Source: a virus
Lineage: Duplodnaviria; Heunggongvirae; Uroviricota; Caudoviricetes
Strand: one strand, 5' to 3'
Length of the DNA stretch: 48,029 bases
Virus record (IMG/VR): IMGVR_UViG_3300018475_001475
The notes under the pieces: model-generated
Databases searched by the model: none
What the model saw: the letters and a program-made list of their open reading frames with translations, nothing else
What the model was told of the DNA's origin: nothing
Shown: positions 17,238 through 18,353 of the stretch, piece after piece
Layout of the letters: each line of letters starts with the position of its first letter
How positions within the stretch are numbered: the first letter of the stretch is position 1
Program-made: the position numbers and the translations under genes

Positions 17238-18353
17238 TTAAGCTAGAATCCACTCGCCAAAGATTAGGTTGATTAGAACACCAACACCCATCTGGAACAT
17301 ATATCTGTAATCATAGGTCATGTCCTGATTTAGGGTCTTGTCCTGAACCTCTCTTAGCTGATCCTCGCCACGGTTAACTAGCTTGATGAACTTGTTGTCC
17401 ATGACAGGCATAATAAATAGAACCTTGTCGTCAACTAGCTTCTTAGTGGTGTCGCCTAAAGCAAAGCCCTGCTTAATTTCAACTAGACGAATGCCTTCCC
17501 ACATGCCCATTCTGCCAGTGGTATGACGCTCGTTCTTCATCTCATTAGAGATCCACTCAACGTTCTGTAGACCAGTAACCTTAGTTAGAGCAGACTTAGT
17601 ACCCATGATAATAACCTCATTAGCACCAGTAGCCATCTGAACGTCCTCAACTAGCTGAATTAGGGTACCTCTGGAGTTCTCGTCTAGAGCACCAGTCTTA
17701 ACCCACTGACCTGCACCAGAAGCGCCGCCAGGTAGCTTCTCAGCAGCGTCCATTAGAGCCTGATAGATAGCCTCGTTAACGAATCTGTCAATAGCCTCGT
17801 AAATCTTAGTGATAAAGGTAGCGAAATCCTCTAGACCACAGATTAGCTTCTCGTACTCGCTGTAAACAGCAATGCCGTATTCAGAGGTCTCAATGGAGAA
17901 GCTGGAGCCCTTGCCTAGTCTCTGACGGTCTAGATCCCAGTGGGAACCAGAAACCTTAGAAACAGTTAGAACGGAGTTATCCTCGGAATAGAAGATGTTC
18001 TCGTCGCCCTCGTCTAGGTATCTCTCTTCAACAAACTCTCTGAAGAAGGGGTTCTCTGCCCAGCCAGACTTTAGTAGGTTGGGAACTAGCTCTTCGATTA
18101 GATCGAATAGGATCTGAGCATTAGCTCTCTTCTTAATAGCCTTACGAATTTCCTGCTTGGTGGCATTCTCAGAAACGCCGATTGCCTCTCTGAACACCTT
18201 TCTAATCTTCTCATTAGCAGTCTTAGCGTCAATGCCTTCCTCGTACTTATTAACGGAAGCATCAACCATTAGCTTATTAAAGTTAACAAACTTAGTTTCA
18301 TCATTTTCGAAAATAGCACGCACATGTGCGTCAAAATTCATTAGATTAGCCAT
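17238..18353 (-). CDS. Major capsid protein (start MANLMNF, 371 aa)
   Basis: GGAGG SD before 18353; size, position after protease and decoration genes, extreme codon bias. Confidence 0.85.
   Translation of the reverse strand: MANLMNFDAHVRAIFENDETKFVNFNKLMVDASVNKYEEGIDAKTANEKIRKVFREAIGVSENATKQEIRKAIKKRANAQILFDLIEELVPNLLKSGWAENPFFREFVEERYLDEGDENIFYSEDNSVLTVSKVSGSHWDLDRQRLGKGSSFSIETSEYGIAVYSEYEKLICGLEDFATFITKIYEAIDRFVNEAIYQALMDAAEKLPGGASGAGQWVKTGALDENSRGTLIQLVEDVQMATGANEVIIMGTKSALTKVTGLQNVEWISNEMKNERHTTGRMGMWEGIRLVEIKQGFALGDTTKKLVDDKVLFIMPVMDNKFIKLVNRGEDQLREVQDKTLNQDMTYDYRYMFQMGVGVLINLIFGEWILA

Follow-up and report, generated by a model that had tools for sequence, protein, structure and literature searches.

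Across a 48,029-nucleotide stretch of DNA from a tailed phage of the Caudoviricetes (IMG/VR record IMGVR_UViG_3300018475_001475; hereafter the window, which means this whole stretch at its full length), the leucine (Leu) codon CTA is the selected Leu codon of the most heavily translated middle and late genes. The gene of the major capsid protein is its most extreme carrier, whereas the arm of the genome that is expressed first has no CTA optimum. Because this early arm differs from the rest of the genome and a corresponding strand asymmetry is seen in relatives whose capsid genes are also dominated by CTA (CTA types), a change of Leu decoding during infection is the best reading of these patterns. 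More specifically, decoding would shift after the early phase towards the host tRNA-Leu(UAG), a tentative proposal that falls somewhat short of probable. The window corresponds to positions 115,612-163,640 of contig Ga0224414_10000634 (170,224 bp) with 99.995% identity. It consists mostly of minus-strand genes from about 43 kb down to position 1, a divergent plus-strand operon starts at 43.4 kb, and the GC content is very uneven (32-47%).

In the minus-strand capsid gene (17238-18353), 29 of the 30 Leu codons are CTA and the remaining one is TTA, compared with a CTA share of 20% among the 2516 Leu codons in 131 genes of this phage (binomial P = 1.4e-19). Apart from CTA, the only A-ending codon used in the gene is AGA (11 AGA and 6 CGT for Arg). 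All 27 Lys codons are AAG (AAA 0/27), all 13 Gln codons are CAG (CAA 0/13), and GGA, CCA, ACA, TCA, GTA and ATA do not occur. An earlier note on this DNA, made from the sequence by hand count, had given exactly these Leu numbers and a predominance of AGA for Arg, and its impression that CTA also abounds in the genes of the tail tube and fibres is borne out by full counts (Table 1). Its description of a switch between early and structural genes holds for the early arm, but not as a division by function, as the late portal and terminase-like genes are unbiased (Table 1) and some non-structural genes outside the window are biased, namely an AAA_24 recombination-type gene (CTA 13/19) and its neighbour (11/22). 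The gene at 20902-22419 (CTA 7/62) is likewise without bias. CTA marks the most codon-adapted genes, which comprise virion genes and some replication genes, and does not separate structural from early genes. When each gene was scored for host-likeness, measured as the resemblance of its non-Leu codons to Clostridia EF-Tu genes, the five genes with the most host-like non-Leu codons were all CTA-rich. In the late module the score correlated with the CTA share (rho = 0.70), which reached 73% in the top quartile of late genes versus 14% in the rest. The use of CTA thus falls along one axis with that of the other selected codons.

Comparison with related capsids separates Leu from all other amino acids. 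Two relatives (G1 and G2) have capsids with 97-99% protein identity and about 87% DNA identity to that of the window and use CTA at 29-30 of 30 Leu codons; only 1-2 of the 30 Leu codons differ from those of the window, versus 17-19% of the other synonymous codons. The opposite is seen in L009, a capsid with 85% protein identity and very similar other codons, in which Leu is encoded by CTT (22), CTC (5) and CTG (4) and never by CTA. Here all 28 conserved Leu codons differ from those of the window versus 32% of the other degenerate codons. Another capsid with 85% protein identity (G3) has 23 CTT and two CTA codons. As judged from these alignments, the CTA preference is shown to be Leu-specific and maintained by selection. 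In most of the 68 capsid relatives returned by a wider search, Leu is mainly encoded by CTA, down to an identity of 51% (30/32, 28/28, 29/30, 26/29 and 24/30 in different lineages), with CTT, CTG and TTA types as the exceptions. The habit also holds across capsids that vary in their Arg and Glu codons. The capsids of L005 and L006 are 97-99% identical to the window capsid in protein and only about 87% in DNA, and therefore point to very strong purifying selection on the protein and a long separation of the lineages.

In three modules (late, middle and replication), CTA is more frequent in genes that have a higher GC content at the third positions of non-Leu codons (GC3; rho 0.54, 0.59 and 0.69, respectively), and since CTA ends in A this rise runs against composition. 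In the 29-kb early arm (43.4-72.4 kb in window coordinates), higher GC3 is instead associated with more CTG and CTC (rho 0.45) and not with CTA (rho -0.12), and the best-adapted quartile of its genes uses CTG at 36%, CTT at 31% and CTA at 5% of Leu codons. Among the relatives, the complete genomes of two CTA types (G424 and G428) show the CTA link on the strand that carries the capsid gene, and their opposite strand leans towards CTT, CTC and CTG. The CTT-type relative G3, in contrast, uses CTT on both strands without any asymmetry. The gene that the earlier note had chosen for its contrast, the first of the early operon (Table 1), does have the Leu counts given there, including the complete lack of CTA, and uses CGT and CGC for Arg as described. 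It is nevertheless a weak witness by itself: neither G1-G3 nor the viral contig collection contains a homologue, and at its remaining codons (GTA/GTC, no AGA) it lies off the host-like pattern. A minus-strand open reading frame (ORF) at 43367-44176 with 18 CTT and 7 CTC codons was rejected as an artefact that mirrors this AAG- and GAG-rich sense gene; similar Leu-rich antisense ORFs occur in relatives.

No tRNA-Leu(UAG) was found in the scanned part of the phage genome itself. ARAGORN and Infernal were applied to the window, the 42 kb to its right and contigs L094, L103, L235 and L236, together about 79% of the genome, with 35 kb (contig positions 71,010-106,088) left out of the scan. There is no tRNA gene in the 48-kb window. 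A single array was reached via overlapping contigs after about 62 kb to the right of the window. It belongs to the same contig as the window, on a segment (L103) that covers contig positions 41,217-61,423, and no other tRNA is present in the scanned part. The array encodes three tRNAs with a CAT anticodon, Arg-CCG, Glu-UUC, Gly-UCC, Ser-UGA, Gln-UUG, Pro-UGG, Thr-UGU, Leu-UAA and Leu-CAA, together with two tRNAs interrupted in the anticodon loop, probably Arg-UCU and Lys-UUU. The tRNA-Leu(UAG) that the earlier note had proposed outside the window was found neither in this array nor elsewhere in the scanned 79%, and it is also missing from the complete genomes of G424 and G428. At a low threshold, ARAGORN gave only an opposite-strand, intron-bearing match inside an ORF, which is implausible. 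The idea that the tRNA pool is remodelled during infection thus keeps its support from the early arm but largely loses one of the sources that had been suggested for it.

The same holds for relatives of the CTA type; in all, the tRNA arrays of 14 long relatives were examined and four complete genomes were scanned whole. Leu-UAG is absent from all eight strongly CTA-type phages (the window phage, G2, G422 and G424-G428) and present only in G3, G429 and G430, none of which has a CTA-dominated capsid. Phage tRNA sets therefore complement, and do not match, the codons of abundant genes: the tRNAs of the window phage cover TTA, TTG and the A-ending codons of the AT-rich bulk genes, which the abundant genes avoid.

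The likely host was approached through capsid matches and codon usage. In a scan of species genomes, the only match was a capsid with 63% identity on a 108-kb contig binned into a Clostridia metagenome-assembled genome (MAG); as this contig is phage from end to end, the link between MAG and phage rests on binning only. EF-Tu of this MAG has no CTA among 21 Leu codons, and the phage capsid on the binned contig has 17 of 30. The non-Leu codons of the abundant phage genes fit best to EF-Tu of a related Clostridia MAG (G019, r = 0.82), with which they have in common unusual traits such as the use of CCC and CCT without CCA. Leu in this EF-Tu gene is mostly CTT (24/30) and never CTA, and the tRNA-Leu genes of G019 carry the anticodons GAG, UAA and UAG.

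As no phage gene for tRNA-Leu(UAG) was found, CTA would be read by the tRNA-Leu(UAG) of the host. Following the early phase, the usable Leu-tRNA pool would then shift away from the readers of CUU, CUC and CUG, on which host-like bacteria rely, and towards tRNA-Leu(UAG), which is hardly used by host messages. The phage could bring about such a shift by selectively damaging or removing the CUY/CUG readers, in the manner of a T4-like host shut-off. Alternatively, these tRNAs might be damaged by a host anticodon nuclease, or host competition for tRNA-Leu(UAG) might simply be lacking. Genes made in bulk after the shift would have been recoded to CTA, and low-copy late genes such as those of the portal and terminase would not. 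In a more exotic variant, which is unlikely, the phage might retarget its own Leu-UAA to CUA by anticodon editing. Bacterial leucyl-tRNA synthetase does not read the anticodon. A small deaminase gene adjoins the tRNA array, but its presence in the non-CTA relatives G429 and G430 weakens this variant.

A set of genes for healing and sealing RNA lies beside the tRNA array. It encodes an RNA 2'-phosphotransferase (Tpt1/KptA; match above the curated cut-off), a Pnkp-like metallophosphoesterase, an RNA ligase of the T4 RnlA family and a polynucleotide kinase-like enzyme (L103:1460-1987, 2833-3651, 16064-17176 and 17469-18371, respectively). Since these genes adjoin the array, tRNA breakage seems to be part of the biology of the phage. 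The set might act in the repair of cleaved tRNAs or, by a yeast-like pathway, in splicing of the interrupted ones.

Several observations weigh against a decoding shift. The portal gene needs CTT late in infection (19 of 43 Leu codons), so that decoding of CUU cannot be abolished. The early arm is under weak selection, and the CTG enrichment there may be only compositional or a product of gene transfer. Sister lineages whose other codons are all equal switch between CTA and CTT, for which a difference in host is the simplest explanation. Capsid relatives with known hosts copy the Leu codon of the host (Bacillus phage PBC2, TTA 23/29; Lactococcus phage AM5, 15 CTT and 10 TTG), which makes ordinary host mimicry the default expectation. 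The RnlA-like ligase is not common to all CTA types, and no nuclease or other gene was found to track the CTA type in gene content. Seven genes differ between the CTA types G424 and G428 and the non-CTA types G3, G429 and G430, mostly variants of the replication module plus a PhoH-like ATPase; with two versus three genomes and shared ancestry, however, this comparison says little. Finally, the view that CTA is probably not the preferred codon of the host itself is derived from similarity in codon usage and from genome samples.

Among the competing explanations, a private decoding channel without any tRNA damage is unlikely, though far from negligible. Here tRNA-Leu(UAG) would be free and charged, so that phage messages escape competition from those of the host, and the choice of CTA may possibly also avoid the frameshift-prone CUU or the weakly pairing UUA codons. 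The host-like MAG G019 would offer just such a situation, with a tRNA-Leu(UAG) gene and an EF-Tu gene that makes no use of CTA. The same bias in a phage of E. coli, where CTA is likewise missing from the host genes for EF-Tu, EF-G and S7, points in this direction as well. CTA phages add no gene for tRNA-Leu(UAG), as if its supply were not limiting. On the other hand, a capsid with 97% CTA would put a very high demand on a minor tRNA, where a balanced use of isoacceptors would be expected, and neither the CTT of sister capsids (G3, L009) nor the non-use of CTA in the early arm would be explained.

Ordinary mimicry of a host that was not sampled is a serious rival, even if it too appears unlikely. 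The host would prefer CTA with tRNA-Leu(UAG) as its main Leu tRNA, and the hosts of sister lineages would prefer CTT or CTG. The behaviour of relatives with known hosts agrees with this view, as do the flips between 85%-identical capsids, which fit host switches, and the complementary distribution of Leu-UAG, missing in CTA types and present in three non-CTA types. Bacteria with CTA-rich EF-Tu genes do exist, as 67 matches were obtained when metagenome contigs were scanned for EF-Tu with three CTA codons, including genes with a CTA share of 25/27 (L153), 23/25 (L190) and 17/23 (L171). None of the 67, however, has a fitting overall pattern: EF-Tu genes of the CTA type fit the non-Leu codons of the phage poorly (r <= 0.55), and the best-fitting one, from G019, is of the CTT type. 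In a second test, CTA was sought at two adjacent, universally conserved Leu codons of EF-Tu. Only 2 of 401 genomes from the likely host order and 1 of 301 from the phylum had it there (3 of about 720 sampled), and none of these three matches the phage in its other codons. Host mimicry is further at odds with the avoidance of CTA by GC3-rich genes of the early arm, with the persistence of the CTA habit where Arg and Glu habits of the capsid vary, and with the E. coli phage Sharanji, in which the bias runs against the host.

It is improbable that the pattern reflects a non-translational constraint, such as avoidance of nuclease sites or mRNA stability, or a mosaic origin of the early arm and the CTA genes. 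The uneven GC content, foreign-looking genes such as the leucine-rich repeat (LRR) gene at 478-2655 (CTG 24/50), the lineage-specific first early gene and the fact that CTG enrichment in the early arm follows GC3 would be in line with it. The change is confined to in-frame Leu codons, though, CTA rises with GC3 in three modules, and it is kept over high synonymous divergence. No clear signal was found in the sequence context of CTA, as the base that comes next is distributed roughly like first bases in general, and CTAG shows no more than a mild depletion within the window (130 observed versus about 167 expected). The strand asymmetry also recurs in relatives that have few tRNA-neighbourhood proteins in common among those compared. 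A phage-encoded tRNA-Leu(UAG) elsewhere in the genome, conceivable given its occurrence in G3 and the 35 kb of contig outside the scan, is very improbable and largely refuted by the single array with only Leu-UAA and Leu-CAA, the lack of tRNAs in the equivalent of the unscanned stretch in G1 and G2, the two complete CTA-type genomes without it and the CTT capsid of G3 itself.

Several features of the wider tRNA region and of the window were recorded in addition (see Table 1 for genes). One of the interrupted tRNAs (L103:6004-6154) yields a clean 74-nt tRNA-Arg(UCU) cloverleaf when a nested 77-nt tRNA-like element, with a perfect acceptor stem and a terminal ACCA, is removed. The other (L103:4968-5091; 124 nt) carries an insert of about 50 nt and is either Lys-UUU or Trp-CCA. 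Both lie at contig positions of about 46-47 kb. ARAGORN reports many more insert-bearing tRNAs in relatives, some of them probably spurious, and the arrays of several relatives contain intact Arg-UCU and Lys-UUU. Two ribozyme-like matches below cut-off were found in the same region: a weak one to a hepatitis delta virus (HDV)-like ribozyme directly 3' of tRNA-Gln (L103:7440-7495, 27.9 bits), and one to RAGATH-27 in a gap of the array (L103:8701-8789, 47.9 bits). In the window, the LRR tail gene (DUF285/BspA-type) has a codon pattern of its own with a GC3 of 0.56, which sets it apart from the CTA class as well as from the bulk genes, and looks recently acquired. About 21 kb to the right of the window, a reverse transcriptase gene (L083:12981-14243) is followed by a 670-nt non-coding gap; together with the Mtd_N-type tail genes at 9074-9916 in the window, it suggests a diversity-generating retroelement that targets tail fibres. 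The gene for a 330-aa protein next to it (L083:15417-16409, about 23 kb right of the window) encodes 18 of 22 Leu by CTT and occurs on two contigs only. It is strain-variable and has the Leu habit of the sister lineage.

Table 1 Selected genes and features of the window (positions in window coordinates).
Feature	Position	Strand	Codon usage and remarks
601-aa distal tail or fibre gene	2988..4793	-	CTA 26/38
931-aa distal tail or fibre gene	4888..7683	-	CTA 37/54
Distal tail or fibre gene	7704..9074	-	CTA 16/28
Tail tube gene (YomU_Tube)	11503..12312	-	CTA 16/19
Major capsid protein gene (SPbeta YonB family)	17238..18353	-	CTA 29/30
172-aa gene upstream of the capsid gene	18380..18898	-	CTA 13/17; no family match; scaffold- or decoration-like by position only
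Portal gene (YonD_N), late	18972..20660	-	CTA 4/43, CTT 19, TTA 13; no bias
Terminase-like gene	22437..24500	-	CTA 9/58; no bias
Start of the early arm	43400..48029	+	Runs about 24 kb past the window; CTG/CTT in place of CTA in GC3-rich genes
First gene of the rightward early operon, lineage-specific	43457..44128	+	Leu 6 CTG and 4 CTT; Arg 11 CGT and 5 CGC

Codon usage of phages widely serves for the prediction of hosts and for the explanation of phage tRNAs, and both uses assume that virion genes copy the codons of the host or match the tRNAs of the phage itself. A family of gut and rumen phages with genomes of about 150-170 kb breaks this rule for one amino acid, almost absolutely, and an unrelated phage of E. 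coli does likewise. If the cause is indeed a change of the Leu-tRNA pool during infection, phages would have a way of taking over translation that is both new and open to testing, and Leu codons would call for caution when hosts are predicted from codon usage.

With respect to known systems, the virion and transcription genes of the window phage are those of large SPbeta-like siphoviruses. The capsid protein belongs to the YonB family (PF27364), and its gene is flanked by genes with Pfam matches to the SPbeta-type YonD portal, the YomU tube, YonJ, YonG, YomW and YomV. The protein has about 29% identity with the capsids of Bacillus phage PBC2 and of Lactococcus phages of the 949 group. A limited full-text literature search returned nothing relevant on a preference for CUA in phage genes. 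Host-preferred codons in phage structural genes were reportedly described by Lucks et al. in 2008, and the abundant virion genes studied here follow that pattern in being Clostridia-like (r = 0.82) for every amino acid except Leu, as well as Thr with ACA. They depart from it in that the chosen Leu codon is absent from the best-matching host-like EF-Tu genes. Phage tRNA arrays, in turn, are said to compensate for the gap between phage and host codon usage (Bailly-Bechet et al., in 2007). The array of the window phage resembles such arrays, as it mostly consists of tRNAs with U at position 34 (Glu, Gln, Gly, Ser, Pro, Thr and Leu-UAA) that serve the A-ending codons of bulk genes. Unlike them, it does not explain the codons of the abundant genes, which avoid exactly the codons that are served.

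Phage T4 reportedly has codon classes linked to expression and timing (Cowe and Sharp, in 1991) and is said to induce the cleavage of host tRNA-Leu (Kano-Sueoka and Sueoka, in 1968). The window phage is similar to T4 in having gene classes of different timing with distinct codons, genes for RNA ligase and polynucleotide kinase, and Leu tRNAs of its own that read UUA and UUG (here Leu-UAA and Leu-CAA). It differs in that no tRNA was found for its favoured codon and in that the bias concerns one amino acid only and is nearly absolute; cleavage of host tRNA, moreover, is only a conceivable step here.

A precedent with a known host is the E. coli jumbo phage Sharanji (OR545507), in which CTA accounts for 24 of 30 Leu codons of the capsid gene and for 21/37 and 14/18 in neighbouring genes, whereas tufA, fusA and rpsG of E. 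coli K-12 have no CTA among 88 Leu codons. A CTA bias can therefore run against host preference. The Sharanji capsid gene (182057-183232) also prefers CAA (14/16), and the three E. coli genes use CAG only (CAA 0/37). In E. coli, the genes for tRNA-Leu(UAG) and tRNA-Gln(UUG) lie in one operon (metT-leuW-glnUW). Sharanji encodes seven tRNAs, none of them for Leu (PMC11895373). What it has in common with the window phage is a capsid gene dominated by CTA for Leu, no phage tRNA found to match, a largely host-like choice of the other codons and a bias confined to the most abundant proteins. Unlike the window phage, Sharanji is an unrelated myovirus (Asteriusvirus) of a proteobacterium with a known host. 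The bias of the window phage is stronger (29/30), extends over an SPbeta-like gut and rumen family and is flipped to CTT in sister lineages. It is conceivable, though unlikely, that large phages of unrelated hosts (gut Clostridia here and E. coli for Asteriusvirus) have in common a codon-level host shut-off that works without a phage tRNA. The favoured Leu tRNAs of the host would be made unusable or irrelevant after the early phase in both cases, and bulk synthesis would be routed through a tRNA-Leu(UAG) that is barely used by the host. Because the signature is also present in Sharanji with E. coli K-12, a direct test is possible in a system that is easy to handle.

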